Below are positions 1-13,224 of a stretch of 13,271 nucleotides of DNA, piece after piece; positions within the stretch are counted from its first letter, which is position 1, and every line of letters starts with the position of its first letter. Origin of the DNA: Candidatus Heimdallarchaeota archaeon (GTDB taxonomy: Archaea; Asgardarchaeota; Heimdallarchaeia; Heimdallarchaeales; Heimdallarchaeaceae); assembly GCA_030668825.1 (NCBI GenBank), contig DAOVET010000073.1, positions 1-13,271 of the forward strand, given 5' to 3'. Under the pieces are notes generated by a model. It was not told the origin of the DNA, made no database searches, and saw only the letters and a program-made list of their open reading frames with translations. The position numbers and the translations under genes are program-made.

Positions 1-140
1 GTTAAGGAAGTGCCTAAAGCTGAGGTTAAGGAAGTGCCTAAAGCTGAAGTCAAGGAAGTGCCTAAAGCTGAGGTTAAGGAAGTGCCTAAAGCTGAAGTCA
101 AGGAAGTGCCTAAAGCTGAGGTTAAGGAAGTGCCTAAAGC
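1..140 (+). repeat. Coding 24-bp tandem repeat, about 5.8 copies (GTYAAGGAAGTGCCTAAAGCTGAR), with a 48-bp higher-order period
   Basis: Units start at 1, 25, 49, 73, 97 and 121. From base 25, GTT..GAA and GTC..GAG variants alternate. Confidence 0.95.
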
Positions 141-414
141 AGCACCCGAAGCTGTGCCAAAGGAAAAACTTCCTATTAAGAAACCTGCAGAGAAAAAGCC
201 TGTTGCACCAAAAGTTGATATTTCATCGATTAAGGGTATTGGTGCTAAAACAGCAATGCTTCTCAAAGAAAATGGTTTCAACACAGTCGATAAAATTGCT
301 AAAGCTACAGTTGAAGATCTTTCCAAGGTCCCAGGTATTGGTCCTGCCACTGCTGAAGCTATGAACAAAGAGGCTAAGAATTTGTTAGCCAAAAGTAAGG
401 AGGAAGCTAAGTAG
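1..414 (+). CDS. Partial gene (5' end outside window): PEVK-like repeat linker plus C-terminal double helix-hairpin-helix domain; by position possibly an extended ribosomal protein uS4
   Basis: Frame is open from base 1. (VKEVPKAE)n is followed by HhH motifs IKGIGAKTA and VPGIGPATA. It ends 8 nt before rps11, the slot uS4 occupies in the archaeal S13-S4-S11 order. No S4 core is visible in the window. Confidence 0.75.
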
Positions 415-422: not shown

Positions 423-1172
423 ATGAGTGAAGATAAAAAAGAAAAGAAAGAACAGGCTAAGAAAACTAAGGAAGACGTTGAAACTCCTAAAGTAGAAGCG
501 AAAGTTGAAACTCCTAAGAAGGAGAAGAAAACTTCCACTACTAAGAAGCAAGAAAAAACCGAAGCTCCTAAAAAAGAAAAGAAAGCCGAACCAAAGAAAC
601 CTAAAGAGACTAAAGATAAAGAAGCCAAGGATGAAGCTAAACCCAAGAAAGAAAAAACTGAAGCTCCTATAAAAGAAAAATCTAAAACCAAAGAAGAAGC
701 TAAACCCGAAGAAAAGGCTAAATCTGAAGAGAAATCTAAACCCGATGCTAAACCTGAATCTGAAGCCAGAGCTAGAACCAGAAGAAGAGATTCTAAATTC
801 GGTATCGCTCATATCTTTTCCAGTTACAATGATACTATCGTTCATATCACCGACATTTCAGGTGCTGAAACATTCAGCCGTAAAAGTGGAGGGATGTTTG
901 TTAAAGCAGACAGAAATGAATCAAGTCCATATGCAGCGATGAAAGCAGCAAACTCAGCAGCACAAGAAGCGCAAAGTAAAGGAATATACCAGCTGTATGT
1001 ACGTTATAGGGCACCAGGAGGACATAAGAACAGGACACCTGGACCGGGAACACAAGCAGCATTAAGGGCGTTGAAAAGGTCAGGAATGAGGATATTAAGA
1101 CTAGAAGATGTAACTCCTTTAACTCATGATGTATGTAGACGCAAATGTGGCATTAGAGGCCGTAGAATGTAA
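423..1172 (+). CDS. rps11: 30S ribosomal protein uS11 (archaeal S11) with a Lys/Glu/Pro-rich N-terminal extension of about 115 aa
   Basis: [64 protein letters not shown] and RGRRM are archaeal/eukaryotic uS11 signatures. Confidence 0.97.
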
Positions 1173-1210
1173 GTTTTTCTACAGTTTTACTCTTTTTTTA
1201 TTTTGTTTTT
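1155..1210 (+). repeat. Copy 1 of the rps11 3'-end plus T-rich terminator repeat
   Basis: AGAGGCCGTAGAATGTAA (1155-1172) is followed by CAGTTTTACTCTTTTTT (1182-1198). Related copies start at 4154 and 4717. Confidence 0.85.
1174..1210 (+). terminator. Oligo-T archaeal terminator after rps11
   Basis: Several T5-T7 runs directly follow the stop codon. Confidence 0.65.
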
Positions 1211-1266
1211 AGTTTGACATTATTGGCCTTTTTATTCCATTTTCTAGATAATTATATAGGATTTAA

Positions 1267-1977
1267 ATGGTAATAGATGAAAAGAAGAATTTCTCTTGTG
1301 AAATTTGTGGTCGTAGCTTTTCAAGAAAAGATAGTTTGTATAGACATGTTCGATCAGTTCATTCCGAAACTAAGAAATACAAATGCAAGGATTGCAAGCT
1401 CTCTTTTTCTCGTAAAGATACCTTAGATCGTCATGTTAGTGATGTTCATAAACAAATACGAAAGCATGTTTGTAATGAATGTGGAGAGAAATTCAAACAA
1501 CCTGGTGCTCTAAAAAGACATATTCAAACAATGCATGAAAAAGATGTATTTTATGAGTGTCCACATTGTGATGCAGAGTTTTCTCGAACTGATTCTTTAA
1601 ACCGTCATATCAATGCAGTTCATCTAAACCTTCGTCCCCATATTTGTAAAGAATGCGGCGCTTCTTTTAAGTTGTCAGGTCATCTTAAGGAGCACATAAT
1701 ATCTGTACATACAAACAAACGAATTCATGTGTGTGAGGAATGTGGTTTTGCATTTAAGCTTCGTAGTCAGCTCAAAGATCATATTAGAGTTGTTCATCAA
1801 GACTTGCGTCCTCATGTATGTGAAGAATGTGAAAAAGAGTTTCATCATGCAGGAAGTTTGAGGAAACATATAGTATCTGTGCATACTGATAATCTTCCAT
1901 ATGTTTGCGAAACCTGTAAGAGGGGTTTTGCCGACCCAAGCAATCTATATAACCACAAAAAAGCTAATGCTTGCTGA
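1267..1977 (+). CDS. Tandem C2H2 zinc-finger protein, 8 fingers (last one C2HC); probable N-terminal part of a zinc-finger nuclease
   Basis: Seven C-x2-C-x12-H-x4-H units at a 29-aa period with conserved F and L, plus CETC..H-x5-C. It ends in a TGA in frame with the next ORF. Confidence 0.95.
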   Translation: MVIDEKKNFSCEICGRSFSRKDSLYRHVRSVHSETKKYKCKDCKLSFSRKDTLDRHVSDVHKQIRKHVCNECGEKFKQPGALKRHIQTMHEKDVFYECPHCDAEFSRTDSLNRHINAVHLNLRPHICKECGASFKLSGHLKEHIISVHTNKRIHVCEECGFAFKLRSQLKDHIRVVHQDLRPHVCEECEKEFHHAGSLRKHIVSVHTDNLPYVCETCKRGFADPSNLYNHKKANAC

Positions 1978-2010
1978 TATACTTCTACTACAGCTTATAA
2001 ATGGGAGGAG

Positions 2011-2430
2011 TTGTGTAAAGAAATAGCAGAGGTTTTGTTAGCTGGTTTAGATTGGAAGTGGAAACCTAAGATAGATACTCCTGAGATTGAAGAGCAGAGT
2101 TGGATTCAACCTGAGATAGTTGTATACTACGAAAATAATACGAAAAGAATCATTGATGCTAAGAGGTCTACTCAAGCGATATTCAAGGAGAAGGATTTGA
2201 AAGTATATCCGAGAGTGGCTGAGAAGGTGGAGTTCTGGTGCCTCTACGGTAAAACTGCAGGAATGTTTGAAGAAAAAGAAAGCATAATTGCTAAGTCTAG
2301 TGAGGAAATCATTACTGAGCTTGAGGAAAGGAAAACTAAATCTAGTGAAGATGAAATAGGAGAAGTAATTAGAAAGATAATTTTTCTTAGACGAGGTCTA
2401 GATTTTAAAACTCAAAAATCACTAGTATAA
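2011..2430 (+). CDS. PD-(D/E)xK restriction-endonuclease-like domain; open from 1978, in frame with the zinc-finger ORF
   Basis: WEELCKEIA helix (begins before the TTG), IQPEIVV and IIDAKRS match the E...PD...(D/E)xK layout. No stop lies between 1978 and 2427. Confidence 0.65.
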   Translation: MCKEIAEVLLAGLDWKWKPKIDTPEIEEQSWIQPEIVVYYENNTKRIIDAKRSTQAIFKEKDLKVYPRVAEKVEFWCLYGKTAGMFEEKESIIAKSSEEIITELEERKTKSSEDEIGEVIRKIIFLRRGLDFKTQKSLV

Positions 2431-2434
2431 ATTA

Positions 2435-3259
2435 CTAAATATCTGAGCCCCACTTATAGGGAAGAGTATTTTTATATCCAAATTTTTTCAGAAGCTCATG
2501 AACAAGTTGTGGAATGTGGTTTCCTCTAAATTCACGAATTTCATTAATAATATCGTCTTCCTTCCCTACTATAATCTTCTGCCATAAATCAGGTTTGTAG
2601 CGTACCAAATTAGATAGCATCCATGATCCAGTAAACGTCTCCAAGTACCTAAATCCTTCGATAACCTCACTAAGAACTGGCTTATATTTTCCTGGTAAGT
2701 AATCATCTATCCTAGGATATCCTTTCAATTCTATATTACAGAAGATTACTATTAGTCCATAAAAAACCCCTCTATTAGATACCTCAGCAGATATATAAGG
2801 AGGTTTATTCTGATATTTTTTCTCAATATTTAAGCCATGATGAGTAAAGAAGAAAACCTCATTTTTTACATTATAATGAAGCATTAATGCACCTTTTACA
2901 CATTGTAACAAAGCATAATACTCTACTAAAGGACTAGAATTTTCATTCATGGTCAGAGATGTTTTAAACATTTCATAGCCCTGTTGGAAGTAAATACTAG
3001 CTCTAGTGGCAATATCTGCAAAATCATCGTTTGAATCTCTAGCCTGTAATAGATTCTTTTTGTTTATTTTGTCTTCAAGATAGTTTATCTTAGTTATACT
3101 TCTTTTCTTCTCTTTCAACAACTCCGATTTCGCTTCTTGAGTTCTCTCTAGTCTACTGTAGTGAGGATTGTAAACGTTCTCTAACTGTGTTTTCACAAAA
3201 AATGGTACTGTAAATTTTTGCAAGTTATACAGAACAACGTGGTAATACTTGTCTAACAT
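2435..3259 (-). CDS. YaaC-like family protein
   Basis: SSPLVEYYALLQCVKG, THHGL and MLSNLVRYKPDLW resemble YaaC motifs. ATG 3259 is preceded by GGGAG, so it is preferred over TTG 3280. Confidence 0.65.
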   Translation of the reverse strand: MLDKYYHVVLYNLQKFTVPFFVKTQLENVYNPHYSRLERTQEAKSELLKEKKRSITKINYLEDKINKKNLLQARDSNDDFADIATRASIYFQQGYEMFKTSLTMNENSSPLVEYYALLQCVKGALMLHYNVKNEVFFFTHHGLNIEKKYQNKPPYISAEVSNRGVFYGLIVIFCNIELKGYPRIDDYLPGKYKPVLSEVIEGFRYLETFTGSWMLSNLVRYKPDLWQKIIVGKEDDIINEIREFRGNHIPQLVHELLKKFGYKNTLPYKWGSDI

Positions 3260-3366
3260 ATTAACTCCCAACTTCTTCAAATGTAATTATTGCATATCTA
3301 TTTGAGTTTTTTTCACATACTATGCATAAATTTTTTTAATCTTCTATTTATTGTTAGAAATTGGTA

Positions 3367-3924
3367 ATGAGGATGCGTGAGCTTGACAAGAGAAGAATTT
3401 TACAGCTGAAAAAGGATTTTGTTGATTTAATAAGACACGAAACAAAAACATGGCAATCAGTTGAGGAAGAAGTAATTTTTGAACTTAATGGTGGAGTAGA
3501 AAGACTGGATGTGGTTGCAAAAGGAAGCGATGGTTTAAAATATGGTTTTGATCTGCGATTTCTGAAAGGGTCTCCTTCCACTAGAATAATTCAATTCGAG
3601 TGGGACATAGGTATCAGGGCTTTAGTGAAAAGGAGAATAATGATTGGGGATTCTGGCATAGATAAATGGGTTGTAGTTCTTTTAGGAATAGATAGAAAAC
3701 TAATGCGTCATAACATATACAATCGAGATACAGATATTTCTCTTTGGCAATTCTCTCAAGCGGATATTTGGGAATTCATTAATTTGTATGACCCTAAGAA
3801 GCTCTCAGTAGCTCGAAAAGAACCTCTAGAGGAATATTTCTCTTTACTTCTAGGATCAATGGAAGCCAAAGAAATTGTAAGGAAAGTAAAGGGGGGGGTT
3901 GATAACATCTCAAGATCTTGTTGA
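3367..3924 (+). CDS. Hypothetical protein, possible restriction-endonuclease-like fold with atypical catalytic motif
   Basis: VEEEVIF..ERLDVVAK..YGFDLRF resembles E..RxD..(D/E)xK with Lys replaced by Arg. The first ATG is at 3367. Confidence 0.5.
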   Translation: MRMRELDKRRILQLKKDFVDLIRHETKTWQSVEEEVIFELNGGVERLDVVAKGSDGLKYGFDLRFLKGSPSTRIIQFEWDIGIRALVKRRIMIGDSGIDKWVVVLLGIDRKLMRHNIYNRDTDISLWQFSQADIWEFINLYDPKKLSVARKEPLEEYFSLLLGSMEAKEIVRKVKGGVDNISRSC

Positions 3925-4171
3925 TACTACAAACAAAGTATATGAAAGGGCTTTAAAAGAAGCTGATCCACTAGTAAAAGAGCTTGTAACTGCAATATTT
4001 GGTGATTTTATTATGGGGGGGTTGGTTGCTGGAGGTATTTTTGTGCTTATTGATACAACTGTAGACTATAATGTACTTAAACTCAGTTTGGGTCTTGTCT
4101 GTGTATCTGTAGGCATTATAGCTTGGCTAATAAGATTTTTTGTGAAAAAAAGAAGAAGCCGTATAATGTAA
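3899..4171 (+). CDS. Small membrane protein with two predicted transmembrane helices
   Basis: Two hydrophobic stretches (FIMGGLVAGGIFVLI; LSLGLVCVSVGIIAWLIRFFV) and a basic tail. It overlaps the upstream gene by 26 nt and ends in repeat copy 2. Confidence 0.6.
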   Translation: MITSQDLVDTTNKVYERALKEADPLVKELVTAIFGDFIMGGLVAGGIFVLIDTTVDYNVLKLSLGLVCVSVGIIAWLIRFFVKKRRSRIM

Positions 4172-4206
4172 TTTTATCCTTTTTTCATTTTTATTTTTCT
4201 TATACT
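4154..4206 (+). repeat. Copy 2 of the rps11 3'-end plus terminator repeat
   Basis: AGAAGCCGTATAATGTAA is 16/18 identical to 1155-1172. The T-rich tail ending TATACT resembles that of copy 3. Confidence 0.8.
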
Positions 4207-4249
4207 TTTGTGCTTATTCTTATATATTGAAATAATAAACCATTTCTTA

Positions 4250-4699
4250 ATGAATCTTGAAATCGATCTTTCTAAACTCAATTACAAATTCCATTGCAAA
4301 CCATTACTTATTGGAGGAAAAGCTATGGAGTATTATGAACTTCGTAAAGTTGGTAATGATGTTGATTTTGTTTTAGCTCTTGAAGACTATGAAGGATTAA
4401 AAGAGATCTACTCAGAACCAGAGTATCATAGAGATTTATTTGGTGATCTTGGAGTTATAGTTCATGAATTCGAGCTTTGGAAATGTATATGTCTATTCAA
4501 TTATGATTTTTTATCCGAGAAAGCAATAGAGATGGAAGAATATTTGATCGTTTCACTGGAGAAACTACTCTTTTTGAAAGCTTTAGCAATGAAAGAAGAA
4601 AAATATCATAAGGATTTAGAACTTTTAGTACAGAAAATCTTGAAAATTCAATATGATACGAAACTTGATGAGAAGTATAAGAAAGATTTGAAAATGTGA
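4250..4699 (+). CDS. Nucleotidyltransferase-like protein (Pol-beta superfamily)
   Basis: LLIGGKAM..GNDVDFVL matches hGG..DxD. TTATATAT at 4220-4227 suggests a leaderless start at ATG 4250. Confidence 0.7.
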   Translation: MNLEIDLSKLNYKFHCKPLLIGGKAMEYYELRKVGNDVDFVLALEDYEGLKEIYSEPEYHRDLFGDLGVIVHEFELWKCICLFNYDFLSEKAIEMEEYLIVSLEKLLFLKALAMKEEKYHKDLELLVQKILKIQYDTKLDEKYKKDLKM

Positions 4700-4716
4700 T
4701 ATTTGAAAAGCAATAT

Positions 4717-4780
4717 AGAAGCCGTATAATGCAAAAATTCTCCAGTTTTACTCTTTTTTCTTATTTATTTTACATATACT
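4717..4780 (+). repeat. Copy 3 of the rps11 3'-end plus terminator repeat
   Basis: AGAAGCCGTATAATG is an exact 15-nt match to copy 2. CAGTTTTACTCTTTTTT (4743-4759) is an exact 17-nt match to copy 1. Confidence 0.85.
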
Positions 4781-4868
4781 ATTAATTTACTCTTGTTTCC
4801 TATTTGTTGTAGTTGATTTTTTATAGGAAAATATCTTTCCCTTCTTAAAGATGGTTTAGGTTACTGAA

Positions 4869-5489
4869 ATGGCAGATATTATTAAGGAAATTTCAAAAAA
4901 CAAGAAACCTATTCAAAGTAGAGAACAGCTAGAAGAAGTACTAATCACAATTTTTGATGAAATAGGAGAAGTAATTGGAAAACATGAATATCGAATTGTT
5001 GGTACAGCTGCAGCTTTATTGCAAAATGTAGAAATCTCCACAAATGACGTAGATATTTTGTTTAAAGAAAGAGAAGGAATAGATGAAGTACATCAAATCT
5101 TGTCTAAATTTAATTGTCTTAAGAAGCCAGAATTTCTTGGTAATGAAGAAGTGGGAGGACAATATTTAGCTATTTATGAGATAGGAGAAATAACTGTAGA
5201 ACTTAGCACTGTGGAGTACGAAGCTGAAACAGATGGGATGGAATGTTTTGGAAAAGGACCATGGAAACATTATGAGACAATAAAAATAGAAAATTATGAG
5301 ATTCCAGTGATTAGACTAGAGTTAAGATTAATTTCGGAAGTGTATAGAAAACGGGAAGAAAGAGTAGACCAACTCATAAAGCATTTACGAGATAAAAAAT
5401 GTAACTTGAGTCTAATAAGAAGAGGATTGTCTGAGCGAAAAATATCAGAAGAAACTCAAAAGAATATAATTGCCAAAATAAAAGGATAA
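4869..5489 (+). CDS. Nucleotidyltransferase-like protein (Pol-beta superfamily)
   Basis: YRIVGTAAALLQNV..TNDVDILF matches hG[ST]..DxD. Confidence 0.7.
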   Translation: MADIIKEISKNKKPIQSREQLEEVLITIFDEIGEVIGKHEYRIVGTAAALLQNVEISTNDVDILFKEREGIDEVHQILSKFNCLKKPEFLGNEEVGGQYLAIYEIGEITVELSTVEYEAETDGMECFGKGPWKHYETIKIENYEIPVIRLELRLISEVYRKREERVDQLIKHLRDKKCNLSLIRRGLSERKISEETQKNIIAKIKG

Positions 5490-5525
5490 AAATGTGGAGT
5501 ATTGTTTCAATCAGTTAATTCTGAA

Positions 5526-6410
5526 TCAATGCTCAAAGTCCTTAAACATAACTACAATCACAGAACCTGGTCCTGTAAAACAATATGTGATGCCACTCAT
5601 TGGAATAACTCCATAGAAATTTACTTCAGGAAATCGAGTGGTAAGAATCTGTTTTGCAAGAGTTGATCCTTCTTCTGCATTCCCAGAAACGATATAACAT
5701 CCCAAATTCTCGAAGTTTTTCATCGAGATATATGCTTGAGTTACAATAGCTTCTACTGCTTCTTCATATGACTTTGCTTGATTAAAAGAATTAATCACAC
5801 CATCTTGTGTTCCTTCCAAACAAGGATAAATACTCAGAAGAGACCCCATAACGAATTTGACAAGTCCTATTCTACCACTTCTTTGTAAGTATTTTAAGCT
5901 CTCAAATGTAAATGTTGTTTTTAGTTCGTTACTCTTGAAATCATTCAGAAGAGAAGTTATCGCCTTGAAATTCTTACCTTCTTTAAGAAATTCTGCTGCT
6001 TTAATAACCAAGATTCCTACCCCAAAAGATCCTTCTTTAGAGTCATACTGATGGAATTTGCTCTTCCCTCCTTGTTTTTGATATTGGATGATGCTTGCTC
6101 TAACTGTATTAACGATTCCAGTCCCCCTTGATGTCATATTAATTATGAAGATAATCTCATATCCTTCCTCTTCCAAGTGTTTGAAAGTGTTTACAAAATA
6201 ATTTATGCTTGGTTGAATGGGTTTTGGAACCTTTTTACTGGTATGGATTCTTTTCAAAAATTCATCATAAGTGATTTCACTTGGATATATTAGTTCTTCA
6301 TTAGTGTCTGGAAACTCTACGGGTACTTGTATTGTAAAAATGTTGTATTTTTCTATTAAATTTGAAGGAATATCGGCAGCTATATTTGCAAGGATGATTG
6401 CACCAGTCAT
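5526..6410 (-). CDS. DegV/FakB family lipid-binding protein (divergent)
   Basis: ADIP, QPS, YDSK..SFGVG, LKYLQRSGRIG, LLSIYPCL..DGVI and TGPG. The domain begins at ATG 6410, not 6473. Confidence 0.85.
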   Translation of the reverse strand: MTGAIILANIAADIPSNLIEKYNIFTIQVPVEFPDTNEELIYPSEITYDEFLKRIHTSKKVPKPIQPSINYFVNTFKHLEEEGYEIIFIINMTSRGTGIVNTVRASIIQYQKQGGKSKFHQYDSKEGSFGVGILVIKAAEFLKEGKNFKAITSLLNDFKSNELKTTFTFESLKYLQRSGRIGLVKFVMGSLLSIYPCLEGTQDGVINSFNQAKSYEEAVEAIVTQAYISMKNFENLGCYIVSGNAEEGSTLAKQILTTRFPEVNFYGVIPMSGITYCFTGPGSVIVVMFKDFEH

Positions 6411-6703
6411 AATGAAATATTGTTCAAAGTTGGATAAAAACCCATTGTCAAGAAAGTTTCTAATGATTGACAAAGCTTATCATAGTTTCTATTAGCATAC
6501 TTTTATCCTGAAGTTTTGAATATCCATTAGGAATGGTGGAAAATTCAATGATATTGATGAAGTAATAGAAAAACATTGTTTTTTGAAGTAAATTTTGGTT
6601 GGCAATTAAATAACAGCTAAATTAATCTGAGTTTTTATTATTTTTCAGTTTCAACTAAGTCCCCAAAGTGTTTTTTAAGCAGTTAATATTTCATTGATTT
6701 AGA

Positions 6704-7510
6704 ATGACAAAATCATTAGATGAAATTCTCGAATCAGTAGCCAATATCTGTGATAGGGAAACAAAACATTCAAAAGACTTTGGTATTGAATTTGGTACTT
6801 TTTCCCCACATAAATTAAAAGCTACTAATGTGAAATGCATCGCTGTTTCACCTTTGATGAATCTGAAGCTCGTACATTTTATGAATGATAACAAAGCAAA
6901 TGTTGCTGTAACTTTATTGCCTCTATCCATCATAGAGAATAAATTTCCTCTTTCAGAAATAGACTTTGAATTATTAAGATCTTTAATTACAAATAACATC
7001 AAAACAATTAGATTACCCCACAAATGGCTTCATTCAATAAAAGGGAGCTTTCCCTACTTCCTTCAAACTCTAGGATTAAGTAAAATGGAGGATTCAAGCC
7101 TTGTTACAGAAACTGACAAGAAATTAATATTGTGGAATTTACCTGAAATGAGTTTTCAAGATTTTCTTGCATCTTTGAGTCATTTAAACAAAAAATGGAT
7201 TGCTCATACATTCGGAAGACCAGAGGATAAATTATCATTTGTATTAGAAAATGAAAAATTCTCAAGTTCAGATTTTCAAGATTTGAAAGATGCAGGAATT
7301 AATACTATTATAAGTTTCAATTTGGATTCAAGTTCCATTCCAATATATCAAAAGAACAGAATGAACTTTCTGTTTATTCCGTTTATTGATTATTCTAATA
7401 TAGCTTTACGTAAGTTTGCTCAAGTACTCCAACTTGAAACAAATGAAAAAGTTCTTTTCCATCCTTTTACAGCAAAAGAGTGGATAGGATATCAAGATTT
7501 GCAAAAATGA
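6704..7510 (+). CDS. Degenerate NIF3 (DUF34)-like protein
   Basis: GIEFG..VKCIAVS..KANVAVTLLPL and LITNNIK follow the NIF3 layout and length, but the metal-ligand residues are replaced. Confidence 0.55.
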   Translation: MTKSLDEILESVANICDRETKHSKDFGIEFGTFSPHKLKATNVKCIAVSPLMNLKLVHFMNDNKANVAVTLLPLSIIENKFPLSEIDFELLRSLITNNIKTIRLPHKWLHSIKGSFPYFLQTLGLSKMEDSSLVTETDKKLILWNLPEMSFQDFLASLSHLNKKWIAHTFGRPEDKLSFVLENEKFSSSDFQDLKDAGINTIISFNLDSSSIPIYQKNRMNFLFIPFIDYSNIALRKFAQVLQLETNEKVLFHPFTAKEWIGYQDLQK

Positions 7511-9590: not shown

Positions 9591-10307
9591 TTATTTGTAT
9601 ACTGTTGGATCATCAATACCTGCTTGATGAAAAGCTCTTTTTCTTCTTTGGCATGATTCACAGGTGCCACAATGTACTGGTTTCTCTTCATTTGTCCATT
9701 CCTCTATTTGGTAGCAAGATGATGAAAAAGCTATTTTGGCTTTGTTTTCAGTAAGAAATACAACTATATCCTTCTTATCTGAATCATGAAATGGAGCTTG
9801 AATTGTAACTTGATTTAAACACCCTAATTCAATTGATTTATTCATCCTATCAACAAAATCCAAGGTATTATCTGGAAATGTGGTTCCTTCTTCCTTATTA
9901 GCTCCAAAGATTATATCTGTTGGTATTTTTGAACTATCAGCTAAAGAAGCTGCTATTGAAAGAAAGAGAATGTTTCTACCTGGGATCCAAACTTCTTTAG
10001 CAGTCTGTAAGGCTAAATCTTCCCTATCTAATTGTTCAAAGGAGCTAATTTCTGGAGGTTTCTTTTCAGATTTTGTAAGACTAGAACCAGCTTCTTGCGA
10101 AAATTCTTCTAGAAAAGGCAAATTGATAATCTTAGTTTCAACAGAAAGCAAGGAGGAAAACTTTTTGTTGGCCTTGATAATAGATTGATCTTCTTTACTA
10201 CCATAAAGAAAACTTAGCAGAGTTATTTCATCATATTTCTGCATTGTCCAATATAAACATGCGGTGGAATCCATTCCCCCTGAAAACAAAACAATCGCTT
10301 TTCGCAT
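9591..10307 (-). CDS. queC: 7-cyano-7-deazaguanine synthase QueC
   Basis: FSGGMDS PP-loop, IPGRN, FPDN and SCY..HCGTCESC. AGGTGA precedes ATG 10307. Confidence 0.95.
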   Translation of the reverse strand: MRKAIVLFSGGMDSTACLYWTMQKYDEITLLSFLYGSKEDQSIIKANKKFSSLLSVETKIINLPFLEEFSQEAGSSLTKSEKKPPEISSFEQLDREDLALQTAKEVWIPGRNILFLSIAASLADSSKIPTDIIFGANKEEGTTFPDNTLDFVDRMNKSIELGCLNQVTIQAPFHDSDKKDIVVFLTENKAKIAFSSSCYQIEEWTNEEKPVHCGTCESCQRRKRAFHQAGIDDPTVYK

Positions 10308-10371
10308 ATTTTTCACCTGTTATCTACTGATATTTTCGTATTATTCACGTATTATTTTCTCTTTAAACATC

Positions 10372-10824
10372 TCATTCTGTATATGTCACAACACTTGTAG
10401 GTGTCTCTGCCATTGTAATAGTTATTTTGAATTGAGGATATTGTTTTTTTATTAGGCTGTGAAAATATTTAGCCAATAGCTCTACAGTGGTTGCTTCTAA
10501 AGGGAGCAAAATTACATCCTCTCTTGGGAAGCGATAATATCTTCCTTCACATGTGTCAACTGTGACTTGTTTGTCTGTGGTTGTTATGTTTAGGTCCTCG
10601 TTTAAATTGGGAATAAGAATTCTGTGATCAAATTTTTTTACTATCTTTCCAACAGCTGTTTTGAAGATCCCAAAATCAATTAACATATTATTTTCATCTA
10701 TTTTTCCTTCAACTTCAACTTCAATATCATAATTATGACCATGGAGGCGCGCACATTTATCATGTCTTGTTAACATATGTGCTGAAGCGAAAGTTAATTT
10801 GTCACCAGAGATTTTTAATTTCAA
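10372..10824 (-). CDS. queD: 6-carboxytetrahydropterin synthase QueD
   Basis: FASAH, CARLHGHNY, IDFG, DH, TVELLA and ETP motifs; AGGTGA before a TTG start. Confidence 0.93.
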   Translation of the reverse strand: MKLKISGDKLTFASAHMLTRHDKCARLHGHNYDIEVEVEGKIDENNMLIDFGIFKTAVGKIVKKFDHRILIPNLNEDLNITTTDKQVTVDTCEGRYYRFPREDVILLPLEATTVELLAKYFHSLIKKQYPQFKITITMAETPTSVVTYTE

Positions 10825-10832
10825 TTTATCAC

Positions 10833-11465
10833 CTATATTGTTCTAGTTTTTGCAATATCCTCTTTAATTCTGGATATTTCACTTACATATTTCTCAGCTA
10901 TTTGAATTGCCAAGCTTTGTATTTCTTCTGTTTTTACTCCGAGGTCTGCTAAACCAATAGCTTGAACATGTTCTGGAACTCCTGTGCTAAGGATATTTAT
11001 TCCAAAGTGGATTTTACTACTTGAAATTCCTACTGTAGCGATTCCCACGTTTAGTTTTTTTCCATCAACGAAAATATCTGTTCCTTTTCTTTCAATTTCT
11101 ATATTTTTTCCCTTCAAAATATCGATGACTGTTTGAGCTAATATTCGGAGTCTGTAATATTCTAGTTCCATATTTGGTGGTTGTATGTCAAATTCCTCAA
11201 TTATGAAATGCAGGGAATCTTCAGAGCTAATTAAAATATTACTCAAGTGCGATTCTCTGAGAATATCTTTAATATCAACCATTTCCTTTGGAGAAAGCTT
11301 CATTCCCCCTCTGAAAACAAGAATACTATCACCTATTATACCATATTTTTCAGCAGTGAAATGACTTGAAAGTTGAGATCCATCGTAAATAATTTGATTA
11401 GCGAAATCTTCTACAATGATATGATATGGCGGTTTATTGATTGTTTTCATTTCTTTCCAATCCAT
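10833..11465 (-). CDS. DUF366 family protein (biotin/lipoate-ligase-like fold)
   Basis: YDGSQL, GDSILVFRG, MVDIKD, LHFIIE, RKGTDIFVDGKKLNVGIAT and KIHFGINI. An alternative start is ATG 11450. Confidence 0.85.
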   Translation of the reverse strand: MDWKEMKTINKPPYHIIVEDFANQIIYDGSQLSSHFTAEKYGIIGDSILVFRGGMKLSPKEMVDIKDILRESHLSNILISSEDSLHFIIEEFDIQPPNMELEYYRLRILAQTVIDILKGKNIEIERKGTDIFVDGKKLNVGIATVGISSSKIHFGINILSTGVPEHVQAIGLADLGVKTEEIQSLAIQIAEKYVSEISRIKEDIAKTRTI

Positions 11466-12405
11466 TAAGTTGTTCCATCAATTTCTTTAGAGATATTTTA
11501 ACTTCTGCAACTGCATTGTGTTGATGAATGCTTTCATAGTTAATTTGTTTGACACAAATTATTGTTTCTGGGGGCTGATTAAAGTATTTTTTGGAAACTT
11601 TCTGTAAAATCGATCTTACAACATCCTCTACAAAGGCTGGATGTTGATGTGCATAGAGAACAACAGCTTGTTCATCTTTTCGTTTTAGCACTTCATGAGT
11701 AGGAGAGCTCATCGATGTTTCAAGTATCCCAATTATATCTTCAAGTTCTATTCTTTCTGCATCTCTTGGTTGCTCAAGTACTAAAATTGATTTTGATCTT
11801 TGATTATGCGAAGCTAAAGGAATAGTTTCAAGTACGTAATCTACTTGTTCCTCTGTGAACCCCTTCTCTATGAGTTTTTCCTTTGTAAAATCCTTGGATA
11901 GTTCTTGAGAACAGGGGCAGACTGTTGTCCCTTCAACCTCTGCACCAATTATTTTAGTAATCGTAATATTTTCTCCATTTTTATGCGCAATAGCTCCAGC
12001 TCTTAATTTGTGAACACTGGATTTCTTCCTTCCGATGGCTTCTGAATAAGTTTCCATTTCATAATTTGCAATTAATATTACTTCGGCATTAGTTGCTCCT
12101 GGTTGAATAGAAAGAACTTTTTCTGCAATCTGAGCACATAATTCTTCACAATCAGAAATAACTTCTCCCGTAAGTGTAGATATAACTTCATTAATTGCTT
12201 CTAGATTTCGGGACATGTGAATTCCTCTTTTTGAAGGTAATAAATCGACATAAACATCTATTTTTGCTGATAATTCATTATATTCACCAAAACGTTTCCT
12301 ACGAATAATTTTTGGAATATCACTTACACCTACTCTCCTAATACCTATCTGAATCTTTGATTCATCCGCTTGAACATCTGATAGTTTTTTGCTATTTAGT
12401 TTCAT
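11434..12405 (-). CDS. mptA: GTP cyclohydrolase MptA / FolE2 family
   Basis: DVQ, RVGV, RGIHMSR, TVCPCS, SHNQRS, LKRKDE, FVEDVVR and ESIHQHNA motifs. Confidence 0.93.
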   Translation of the reverse strand: MKLNSKKLSDVQADESKIQIGIRRVGVSDIPKIIRRKRFGEYNELSAKIDVYVDLLPSKRGIHMSRNLEAINEVISTLTGEVISDCEELCAQIAEKVLSIQPGATNAEVILIANYEMETYSEAIGRKKSSVHKLRAGAIAHKNGENITITKIIGAEVEGTTVCPCSQELSKDFTKEKLIEKGFTEEQVDYVLETIPLASHNQRSKSILVLEQPRDAERIELEDIIGILETSMSSPTHEVLKRKDEQAVVLYAHQHPAFVEDVVRSILQKVSKKYFNQPPETIICVKQINYESIHQHNAVAEVKISLKKLMEQLNGLERNENNQ

Positions 12406-12414
12406 CTTTATACC

Positions 12415-13224
12415 CTACAAGATTTCTATGGCTTTGTGCATTTGTATTGATATGCCAATTTTATCTGGTGATAGATATTTTCCAGCAATTTGAGAAAAAT
12501 TATCTACTTGGTCCCATGTTGGTTGCTCAATCTTCGAGTTTGATGTTGGCGTAACAAATTGGATAACAATGGGAAGTTCTATTAAACCACACTTTTTTGC
12601 TATAAAATCAAAATCTTCTTTTTTAGAGGTTTTGGTTATTACAGTTTTTGCAAACACTTTAGATCCAGCTTTTTTCAAAATTCTGCTCATTTCTACTTCC
12701 CTATCTACAAGTTTTTTCCATTCCAAAGCAGCATTTGCTGTTCTATCCTTTATATCTACGCACGCATAGTCGATTTTTTCTGCAATATTCTCTAGAAAAG
12801 AAAGGTTATCAGTGTAAGCTGTTTCAAGATATGTATTAAATCCTGTATCTTTAAGAGAAGTAATTATGTCTTTTACAAACATTTCTTGATACAAAGGCTC
12901 TCCTCCAGTCAAGCTTACTGAATGTAGATCTTTAGTTGAAAGTTCCTTCACAATATTCAATACATCTTCTGATGTCAAAGGATTAGTAGTTTCTGTAAAA
13001 GATTGAGTGCCTGCTTTAGTCTCAATGAAGCATTTTGCTGGGGTTGTACTCCATGATTTAGGAGAATCACACCAAATACAACCTTTTGTTCCATGAGCTC
13101 CTAATGCAAGAGGACAACCTGAAAATCTAATGAAAATCTGCCTTAATCCATAGCAACTTCCCTCAACTGCTGCTCCTTCGCCTTGGAAACTTGAGAAAAT
13201 TTCTTGTATGTAACCTTGTGACAT
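12415..13224 (-). CDS. queE: 7-carboxy-7-deazaguanine synthase QueE (radical SAM)
   Basis: EIFSSFQGEG, FIRFSGC..CIWCDS, SLTGGEPL, YLET, VDIK and QMHK motifs. Confidence 0.95.
   Translation of the reverse strand: MSQGYIQEIFSSFQGEGAAVEGSCYGLRQIFIRFSGCPLALGAHGTKGCIWCDSPKSWSTTPAKCFIETKAGTQSFTETTNPLTSEDVLNIVKELSTKDLHSVSLTGGEPLYQEMFVKDIITSLKDTGFNTYLETAYTDNLSFLENIAEKIDYACVDIKDRTANAALEWKKLVDREVEMSRILKKAGSKVFAKTVITKTSKKEDFDFIAKKCGLIELPIVIQFVTPTSNSKIEQPTWDQVDNFSQIAGKYLSPDKIGISIQMHKAIEIL

Follow-up and report, generated by a model that had tools for sequence, protein, structure and literature searches.

In the Candidatus Heimdallarchaeota archaeon whose assembly we call G000 (2.76 Mb, 33% G+C), rps11, the gene for ribosomal protein S11, is followed by an island that opens with a gene for a zinc-finger nuclease and holds leftover pieces of the rps11 3' end. 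We analysed it in a 13,271-nt stretch that is one entire 13.3-kb contig, hereafter the window. With somewhat better than even confidence, we read the island as a homing selfish element that resembles the WHO elements of yeasts and is driven by a natural zinc-finger nuclease. Such an element would comprise the final ~30-65 nt of rps11 with the terminator and spacer behind them, the gene for a protein with eight C2H2 fingers and a PD-(D/E)xK nuclease domain, and a variable cargo (Table 1). An earlier note, made from the letters of the window, had proposed a nuclease-driven element that replaces the 3' end of rps11. An unoccupied/occupied allele pair, the rps11 junction of sister genera, a hypervariable stretch of ~65 nt, a discordant finger array, an upstream limit shared by the remnants and a predicted binding site agree with this proposal; the swapped part, however, is not the 285 nt that the note had assumed.

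The island is inserted behind rps11 and opens with the nuclease gene

In sister genera, rps11 is joined directly to the homologue of the gene at 6704, which is followed by RsmB and the QueC cluster (5/5 genomes of four genera). Thus, 1173-6703 represents an island inserted behind rps11 within the genus. A survey of 83 genomes of the class detected the nuclease domain in 20 of the 24 genus relatives as well as in G000, whereas outside the genus it was found in none of six genomes from four other genera of the family, in none of 16 from the rest of the order, and in two of 36 from other families. In all 20 carriers the domain lies 784-1274 nt 3' of the rps11 stop codon on the same strand, encoded by the first gene after rps11, and this gene is intact in 19 of them. 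Contiguous loci without the nuclease gene are present in G018 and G004, while three other genus genomes are undecided because of contig ends or a missing rps11.

In G018, a 92-nt spacer separates rps11 from an acyl-ACP thioesterase gene. G013 (264/280) and G012 (255/287) have this spacer and thioesterase gene behind an rps11 remnant, the correspondence starting 20-29 nt before the rps11 stop codon. The ~2.3 kb that separate rps11 from this remnant contain one cargo gene besides a new end of rps11 and the nuclease gene. G018 on one side and G013 and G012 on the other are an unoccupied/occupied allele pair with exact boundaries.

The end of rps11 is hypervariable

Among the six closest species, mean pairwise divergence in the last two 30-nt bins of rps11 (1110-1169) amounts to 0.27 and 0.20. 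In contrast, 8 of the 11 bins upstream show values of 0.01-0.04 and two (1020-1079) a value of 0.11, and the upstream 315 nt of the gene differ by 2-5% in the same six species. The S11 tail is invariant at the protein level in relatives despite this nucleotide variation. The adjoining spacer at 1173-1266 is nearly identical to that of G009, cannot be aligned to those of other close species, and is copied in the remnants.

The earlier note had placed the boundary of the recoded part further upstream, at 888. The codon shift that it described is real: four-fold degenerate sites in the last 285 nt of rps11 carry 33 A or G versus 10 C or T, while those upstream carry 6 versus 49 (Fisher p 2e-11). 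However, the change from T- or C-ending to A-ending codons at 888 occurs in 22/22 genus sequences and in 0/8 sequences of other families, and one sister genus without the element also looks A-rich over the last 285 nt. Being common to all 22 genus sequences, the shift was rejected as a mark of a recent swap, and the swapped zone comprises only the last ~65 nt.

The finger array and the rps11 end have histories of their own

Distances and trees were computed for 18 of the 20 carriers; G005 and G024 were left out, as contig ends remove most of rps11 in the former and part of the nuclease in the latter. Finger arrays are 26-46% apart even where the rps11 5' parts differ by 2-4%, and the array of G000 is 2% from that of G009 and 27-45% from all others. 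The nuclease domains follow the species more closely than the arrays do. Individual pairs illustrate this mosaic structure. G011 and G002 have the same rps11 end (0%) and arrays 1% apart, with nuclease domains 22% apart; G007 and G015 have rps11 end and array in common despite 17% divergence of the 5' part; and in G000 and G009, behind nearly the same array, divergence sets in within the nuclease gene from ~2280. Two species groups, A and B, are supported by the rps11 5' part and by the nuclease domain and rejected by the finger array (approximately unbiased test, p 4.9e-5 and 6e-4, respectively). Moreover, the rps11 end correlates with the array when the 5' part is controlled for (partial Mantel test, r 0.22, p 0.009). 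The two parts of rps11, whose discordance the earlier note had suggested as a check, are thus discordant in their distance matrices, but the 75-nt end is too short for a tree of its own.

Remnants of rps11 share one upstream limit

The two rps11 3'-end remnants that the earlier note had recognized in the window stand far above chance. The 18-mer at 1155-1172 recurs at 4154 and 4717 with two and three mismatches, respectively; three matches in the window compare with 0.01 expected, 0/200 shuffles reach three, and the whole 2.76-Mb assembly contains only four. The local alignments extend into the T-rich DNA 3' of the gene. Same-strand remnants that include coding sequence were found at 12 of 18 genus loci (E<=1e-3) and at none of three loci of other families, and of 300 random gene ends taken from G000 for comparison, 14 returned a match of this kind. 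The remnants form diverged repeats (66-93%) and reach no more than ~30 nt into rps11. Their earliest starts correspond to window positions 1142 (G009 and G006), 1143 (G010), and 1144 (G012), and none of the 17 remnants in 13 genomes starts earlier.

The first cassette opens with the nuclease gene at all loci, while the cargo varies and includes YaaC, a PLD nuclease resembling DrmC, NERD, TPR, AAA, and Imm5-like proteins, and one insertion sequence (IS) element. One cargo open reading frame (ORF) of the window, 3899-4171, ends within remnant 1, its last residues reading ...RRSRIM* compared to ...RGRRM* in S11. In the older cassette behind it, the small protein likewise keeps to the remnants: its homologues always adjoin one (directly upstream in 8 of 10 loci, directly downstream in G004), and in G006 a remnant ends 10 nt before the homologue. 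The stretch 4171-4759, which comprises remnant, small ORF, and remnant, is 89% identical in DNA to the distant genus species G001, whereas the DNA of rps11 and the nuclease gene nearby reaches only 71-75% identity to G001, which argues for exchange of the cassette between species.

A Pfam scan of 31 island ORFs from nine genomes (G000 and eight relatives) revealed no tyrosine or serine recombinase, in line with the lack of an integrase that the earlier note had observed and that holds for the window ORFs scanned; one IS-type rve transposase is present in G008. No Pfam family of TnsA, TnsB, TnsC, or TniQ was matched among the scanned ORFs, and TnsA was not among the matches shown by the fold search with the nuclease domain. 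Further, an additional finger-only ORF or frame lies between rps11 and the full gene in 8 of 20 loci, at most one per locus. Its sequence runs collinear with fingers 1-5, at ~50% identity to any array. These fragments are pieces of other alleles stacked at the locus.

The nuclease gene encodes eight fingers fused to a PD-(D/E)xK domain

The zinc-finger/nuclease gene that the earlier note had placed directly 3' of rps11 is confirmed as eight C2H2 fingers fused in frame to a PD-(D/E)xK domain (1267-2430). ORF 1267-1977 reaches 150 bits for C2H2 membership compared to a Pfam gathering cut-off of 25.2, and eight finger units were located by pattern in 18/18 arrays. In the window, ORF 1267-1977 and ORF 2011-2430 share the same frame and are parted only by the TGA at 1975-1977. 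Since TGG replaces this TGA in 17/17 relatives, the relatives encode one fused protein of ~385 residues.

The structure model of the nuclease domain, built with 30 family members, has a predicted local distance difference test score (pLDDT) of 88 and a predicted template modelling score (pTM) of 0.82; an earlier model with 11 close sequences (pLDDT 51) was not used. VIA-align matches it to 1y88 (AF1548; Z 8.4, root-mean-square deviation 3.3, 108 aligned), Can1 (Z 8.1), and Can2 (Z 7.9), and further to the small subunit of R.BspD6I (Z 7.3), NucS (7.2), McrC (7.0), and FokI (6.3), values that are middling but consistent. In Foldseek, nearly all of the top 17 matches are nucleases of the PD-(D/E)xK fold. 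Across the 30 family sequences, the catalytic signature consists of W-E in the first helix, an invariant P with E or D directly after it, and a nearly invariant [DE]-x-K; 11 genus sequences show no variation in the corresponding residues (E of helix 1, P-E, and D-x-K). Judged by model and motifs, the fusion is a natural C2H2 array joined to a PD-(D/E)xK nuclease, for which metal-dependent cleavage is predicted.

The nuclease domain matched no Pfam, NCBIfam, or PADLOC family, and eIF3g, the sole profile match among PDB sequences (E 0.1), was taken as chance. A profile search of 1.84 billion representatives yielded a family of 63 clusters, in whose members the nuclease domain is C-terminal behind C2H2, DUF4379 treble-clef, or helix-turn-helix (HTH) arrays or behind homing-endonuclease-associated repeats (HNH_repeat). 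In the metagenome proteins P0029, P0036, P0039, and P0052-P0062, the domain follows long arrays of HTH modules or homing-endonuclease-associated repeats, with lengths of up to ~770 residues, which suggests a family of modular, sequence-specific nucleases. Paralogues of the nuclease domain are also encoded at other loci of the genus, namely L101 (G012), L102 (G013), L103 (G001), L104 (G012), and L105 (G009); the binders are DUF4379 zinc-ribbon arrays in several of them and C2H2 fingers in one. Two paralogues at a syntenic site are decayed, one being cut down to the nuclease domain and one carrying a stop.

A predicted finger-binding site adjoins the remnant limit

The contacts expected from helix positions -1, 3, and 6 of each finger were used to scan 18 rps11 3' alleles (230 nt each, both strands) with 8 of the 18 arrays. 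The best position was identical in 8/8 arrays, namely the minus strand at 1114-1137, and for 7/8 arrays none of 5.5 million positions of G000 scored better. In this register, the invariant contacts, which are Arg, Gln, Leu, or Asp at helix positions -1 and 6, are set against the first two bases of each codon, those determined by the amino acids, and position 3 of the helix against the wobble bases. Helix position 3 is associated with the wobble base of the linked allele; this association shows linkage only and gives no rule. The 10-base pattern of the invariant contacts has no exact match in the assembly, and the rps11 site itself reaches 9/10 only through a letter at 1122 that is private to this assembly (see below). 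Under the usual finger geometry, which we take to apply here, finger 8 and hence the nuclease would be positioned at the 1137 end of the predicted site. This end lies 5-7 nt before the earliest remnant start.

Proposed mechanism and rival explanations

We propose that the finger array binds the rps11 minus strand at 1114-1137, where it would mostly read bases that are fixed by the amino acid sequence, and that the nuclease behind finger 8 would cut a few bases further on, at ~1138-1145, in alleles with accepted wobble bases. The linked allele may be resistant. The break would be repaired from an element-bearing genome, with rps11 as left homology and the old rps11 end together with the downstream DNA distal to the element as right homology. 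The recipient would thereby acquire a new 3' end, the nuclease gene, and the cargo, while its own 3' end would stay downstream as a remnant. Repeated rounds combined with synonymous escape would make both the finger array and the rps11 end hypervariable, stack up remnants, and enlarge the island. Anatomy, distribution, boundaries, discordant histories, fold, and motifs are observed, whereas binding site, cleavage, resistance of the linked allele, and transfer of DNA between cells belong to the model.

Several points weigh against this reading. It presupposes that DNA is exchanged between Heimdallarchaeia cells. The recognition table behind the predicted site (helix positions -1, 3, and 6 to bases) was fixed before any result; it is only approximate and may not hold for archaeal fingers. 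Shuffling the finger order reached the observed score in 0, 0, 3, 1, 10, and 9 of 200 cases for six arrays, corresponding to only moderate specificity, and the 10-base pattern was chosen post hoc. Code scores are 0.61 of the specified positions for linked and 0.64 for unlinked alleles and thus do not support self-resistance, although so crude a code may be unable to tell the two apart. Groups A and B were named after the distance matrices had been seen. Moreover, the non-contact helix positions 5 and -2 vary as much as position 3, so that the variability of the array need not be adaptive. Of eight loci searched for a remnant at the distal island border, six had none and two had a marginal one (G009, p 0.003; G012, p 0.04), and we do not claim one. 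No host-gene remnants were found below E 0.01 beside two paralogous nuclease genes, and other nuclease paralogues face diverging genes and are not tied to gene ends. The rps11 end of G018 differs from that of G013 at 1 of 75 positions, which makes secondary loss by repeat recombination likelier for G018 than a naive allele. Finally, the gene is close to fixation within the genus, and the part of it that encodes the nuclease domain follows the species tree, as would also fit a resident gene.

The main competitor of the homing element, though rather unlikely, is an integration hot spot in which a recombinase encoded elsewhere uses the rps11 3' end as att site, the nuclease being cargo or a resident defence-type edge gene whose fingers evolve against viruses. 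Cassettes bordered by direct repeats of the 3' end of a host gene are a classic integrase mark, the cargo is defence-like (YaaC, DrmC-like PLD nuclease, NERD, AAA, Imm5-like), and cassettes move between species, as seen from the 89% identity of 4171-4759 to a distant species; the code scores that leave linked-allele resistance unsupported and the paralogues not bound to gene ends fit as well. However, this explanation is weakened by the lack of a tyrosine or serine recombinase among the 31 island ORFs of nine genomes, by the fixed place of the nuclease gene, which unlike the cargo comes first after rps11 in 20/20 carriers, by the predicted finger site in rps11 that adjoins the repeat boundary, and by the co-variation of finger array and rps11 end. 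In addition, the repeats, at 66-93%, have no identical core, and the nuclease matches no PADLOC family.

A resident protein that binds DNA 5' of its own gene or where the ribosomal operon ends, acting as autoregulator or as repair or termination factor in an exchange-prone region, with remnants arising as by-products of illegitimate recombination, appears improbable to us. The predicted site is located ~130-150 nt 5' of the start codon of the nuclease gene itself, linked alleles match it as well as others do, and the gene is intact in 19/20 carriers, all of which suits such a role. Yet the catalytic motif of the nuclease is conserved, and the sister genera and two species of the genus would not be without a protein that regulates an essential operon; the shared remnant limit in 13 genomes and the rejection by the array of species groups that the flanks support would both be left unexplained. 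An assembly artefact or a chance resemblance, for which one could cite the seven window letters that lack public-run support (save A at 1977, seen beside G in one run), is hardly credible. The stretch 700-5600, remnants included, recurs in contigs of four public runs, which come from four studies, with single contigs spanning 700-4506 and 1978-5600, 20 genomes have the same architecture, and the motif recurs far above chance. Since these contigs are independent, misassembly of the arrangement, which the earlier note had listed among its possible refutations, is excluded.

Relation to known systems

Passages of a preprint on WHO elements (bioRxiv 10.64898/2026.08.13.744650) describe a nuclease gene behind an essential gene, an alternative host 3' end, leftover 3' fragments, a diverse 3' part with its own history, and stacking. 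The rps11 locus resembles these elements, which occupy FBA1 in Torulaspora yeasts, in that the endonuclease gene lies immediately 3' of an essential host gene (20/20 carriers), an alternative 3' part of this gene comes with the element, and 3' fragments of the gene remain downstream. Likewise, diversity is far higher in the 3' part than in the 5' part (here 20-27% versus 2-5%), the two parts differ in history, the nuclease is diverse, and the extra finger-gene fragments may correspond to the stacked nuclease pseudogenes of WHO loci. In contrast, the WHO nuclease is LAGLIDADG/HO-like with a C-terminal zinc finger, whereas here a PD-(D/E)xK domain follows N-terminal C2H2 fingers; ~30-65 nt would be replaced rather than half of the gene; at most one extra, truncated and proximal copy is found, compared to WHO clusters of up to 9 genes; unrelated cargo genes are carried; the host is an archaeon without a known diploid phase; and cleavage, which has been demonstrated for WHO, is here predicted from sequence. 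With its unrelated enzyme and its short replaced part, the rps11 element would be a WHO variant by organization, not by descent. It also has direct repeats of the target at both ends, as do integrase-type elements, though diverged (66-93%).

Free-standing homing endonucleases of T4-like phages (Seg and Mob), which act by "intronless homing", are encoded between conserved genes and are thought to cut the neighbouring gene in genomes lacking them; these GIY-YIG or HNH enzymes spread together with flanking markers by repair during phage co-infection. The rps11 locus resembles them in having its nuclease gene between conserved genes and a divergence gradient beside that gene reminiscent of co-conversion. 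However, Seg and Mob leave no duplicated host-gene end, and the enzyme class differs. Engineered zinc-finger nucleases combine a C2H2 array with the FokI cleavage domain. Here, too, a C2H2 array is N-terminal to a domain of the PD-(D/E)xK fold, the presumed cut would lie a few bases past the last finger, and FokI is among the fold matches (Z 6.3), but the protein is natural, has eight fingers, and belongs to a separate small nuclease family (63 clusters). I-Ssp6803I, an intron-encoded homing endonuclease of the PD-(D/E)xK class without a zinc-finger array, would have in common with the rps11 element the use of this fold for homing and differs in the two other respects. The PD-(D/E)xK class of homing endonucleases is named in the abstract of PMC6083498.

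For Asgard Tn7-like transposons, passages of a preprint report a TniQ target selector with C2H2 fingers (bioRxiv 10.1101/2025.07.27.667033). As far as those passages go, the rps11 island, if mobile as proposed, shares with these transposons the use of C2H2 arrays for a specific site in or beside a host gene, and the reported selectors make finger-guided mobile DNA in Asgard archaea plausible. The rps11 island differs in that no Tns or TniQ genes were found in the scanned ORFs, cassettes are as small as ~2.3 kb, and the fingers are fused to a nuclease.

With slightly less than even confidence, we advance the fuller claim that the island is the first prokaryotic counterpart of WHO and its protein the first natural C2H2 nuclease: the stretch encoding TPLPHDGC would be read, the cut placed ~6 bp off, and ~30-65 nt replaced, with an arms race between wobble bases and finger helices, a ratchet that accumulates defence-type cargo, and a reservoir of modular nucleases. 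To our knowledge, homing by replacement of a host-gene 3' end has so far been known only from a few yeasts. If the claim holds, archaea evolved this kind of homing on their own and with another enzyme, and zinc-finger nucleases were built by nature before people built them. The C2H2 arrays of Asgard archaea, which resemble those of eukaryotes, would gain a concrete function; finger helices and the wobble bases of a ribosomal gene would offer a case in which the co-evolution of protein and DNA can be read; and accessory or defence genes would have an integrase-free route to accumulate beside a core gene. Full-text literature searches, with subscription journals and supplementary files outside their scope, returned no description of such a fusion or of an island marked by rps11 fragments. 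Hence, the fusion protein and the fragment-marked cassette island appear to be undescribed even if the homing interpretation is wrong. Enzyme engineers, too, may take an interest in a nuclease family whose DNA-binding arrays are interchangeable.

Letters private to this assembly

Seven letters set the window apart from public data. At 1122, 1132, 1133, 1146, 1152, and 1153, all covering contigs of four runs read C, G, C, G, C, and G, respectively. The resulting canonical S11 tail, PLPHDGCRRKGGRRGRRM, is kept in 29/29 other sequences of the order. Relative to the runs, all six clustered window letters are G-to-T or C-to-A changes, and the four S11 residues that they alter are invariant elsewhere. 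Three of them fall inside the predicted finger-binding site and three just beyond the putative break. The seventh letter, at 1977, is G in 3 of the 4 runs, the fourth run having both letters, and the codon at 1975-1977 reads TGG in 17/17 relatives that could be read there. One public contig of 4.4 kb differs from the window only at these seven letters, which may reflect an assembly error or a rare (damaged) haplotype. Accordingly, the nuclease copy of the window is probably either disabled by the nonsense codon or mis-assembled at 1977.

Because the odd S11 tail and the TGA are private to this assembly, apart from the one run with both letters at 1977, they provide no evidence of recoding. Selenocysteine insertion or programmed read-through at 1975-1977 was ruled out by the TGG of all 17 relatives and the G of the public runs. 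Recoding or resistance as the meaning of the odd tail was not accepted, as no contig of the four runs contains it, and gene conversion from the two remnants as its source was ruled out by their different letters.

Features and surroundings of the island

Table 1. Features of the window discussed in the text, in order of position.
Feature	Position	Strand	Basis or remark
rps4 3' end	1-414	+	Upstream context; Pfam HHH_5; Lys/Glu/Pro-rich repeat and helix-hairpin-helix extension
rps11, host gene	423-1172	+	Pfam Ribosomal_S11, E 7e-40; S11 domain at residues 127-242
Hypervariable, discordant rps11 3' end ("swapped" zone)	1110-1169	+	Divergence bins, six closest species
Predicted 24-bp finger site	1114-1137	-	Codons T-P-L-P-H-D-G-C; finger 8 placed at 1137 end; scan with approximate code
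Six private letters	1122, 1132, 1133, 1146, 1152, 1153	+	Four amino acid changes in S11 tail
Putative break/recombination zone	1138-1145		Earliest start of remnant homology in relatives
Spacer: T-rich rps11 terminator region and nuclease-gene upstream region	1173-1266	+	Carried with the element
Eight-finger C2H2 array	1267-1974	+	Pfam zf-C2H2 PF00096, 8 stretches, E 4e-45
In-frame TGA	1975-1977	+	Splits finger ORF from nuclease ORF in this assembly
PD-(D/E)xK nuclease domain	1978-2430	+	Structure model, fold matches, motif columns; 139-aa ORF 2011-2430
YaaC-like cargo	2435-3280	-	Pfam PF14175, E 2e-13
Two cargo ORFs without known family	3361-3924, 3899-4171	+	No match above curated Pfam cut-off, none in PADLOC/NCBIfam
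rps11 remnant 1	4154-4229	+	Last 18 nt of coding sequence and T-rich downstream DNA; match 4154-4208, E 5e-4
Older cassette, small protein without known family	4208-4699	+	tblastn homologues in 10/17 genus loci
rps11 remnant 2	4716-4828	+	Last 18 nt of coding sequence and ~90 nt downstream; E 2e-10
Island gene, weakly nucleotidyltransferase-like	4869-5489	+	Pfam DUF6036, E 0.008, below cut-off
Distal flank gene	6704-7510	+	Homologue directly 3' of rps11 in sister genera

The window runs from the end of rps4 through rps11, the finger ORF, the 139-aa ORF, the YaaC-like gene on the opposite strand, and small ORFs (three without known family and one with a weak nucleotidyltransferase-like match) to DegV and a conserved block of a 268-aa gene, RsmB, QueC, PTPS, DUF366, FolE2, and a radical-SAM gene. 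Within this block, 9591-13224 forms a cluster for 7-deazaguanine (queuosine/archaeosine precursor) with QueC, a PTPS/QueD-like protein, DUF366, a FolE2-type GTP cyclohydrolase, and a radical-SAM protein, which is also found in the sister genera.

The gene order read in relatives gives rps13-rps4-rps11 as the operon order, and rps11 is single-copy in G000. Both ribosomal proteins are extended in the genus. S11 carries a Lys/Glu-rich N-terminal extension of ~120 residues, compared to a plain S11 of 131-133 residues in sister genera, and S4 has a C-terminal Lys/Glu/Pro-rich repeat followed by a helix-hairpin-helix, compared to a plain S4 of 205-235 residues. A full-length rps4 of a relative (L032:440-1492) encodes the S4 domain plus HHH_5. 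The S4 repeat, just 5' of rps11, is the break point of many assemblies.

Three further observations concern the DNA within the island. The segments 2350-2375 in the 3' part of the nuclease gene and 4956-4981 in ORF 4869-5489 match at 25 of 26 nt and both encode DEIGEVI; they may represent a recombination scar. In 2 of the 4 public runs, 4477-4603, inside the small ORF, exists as two alternative contig versions (a bubble), which looks like strain polymorphism. Finally, a 1.1-kb contig of run X2 joins 2470-2493 to 1249-1267 in reversed order with 26 other letters between them; these fits of 24 and 19 nt lie in AT-rich DNA and may be due to chance or to the arrangement of a relative.

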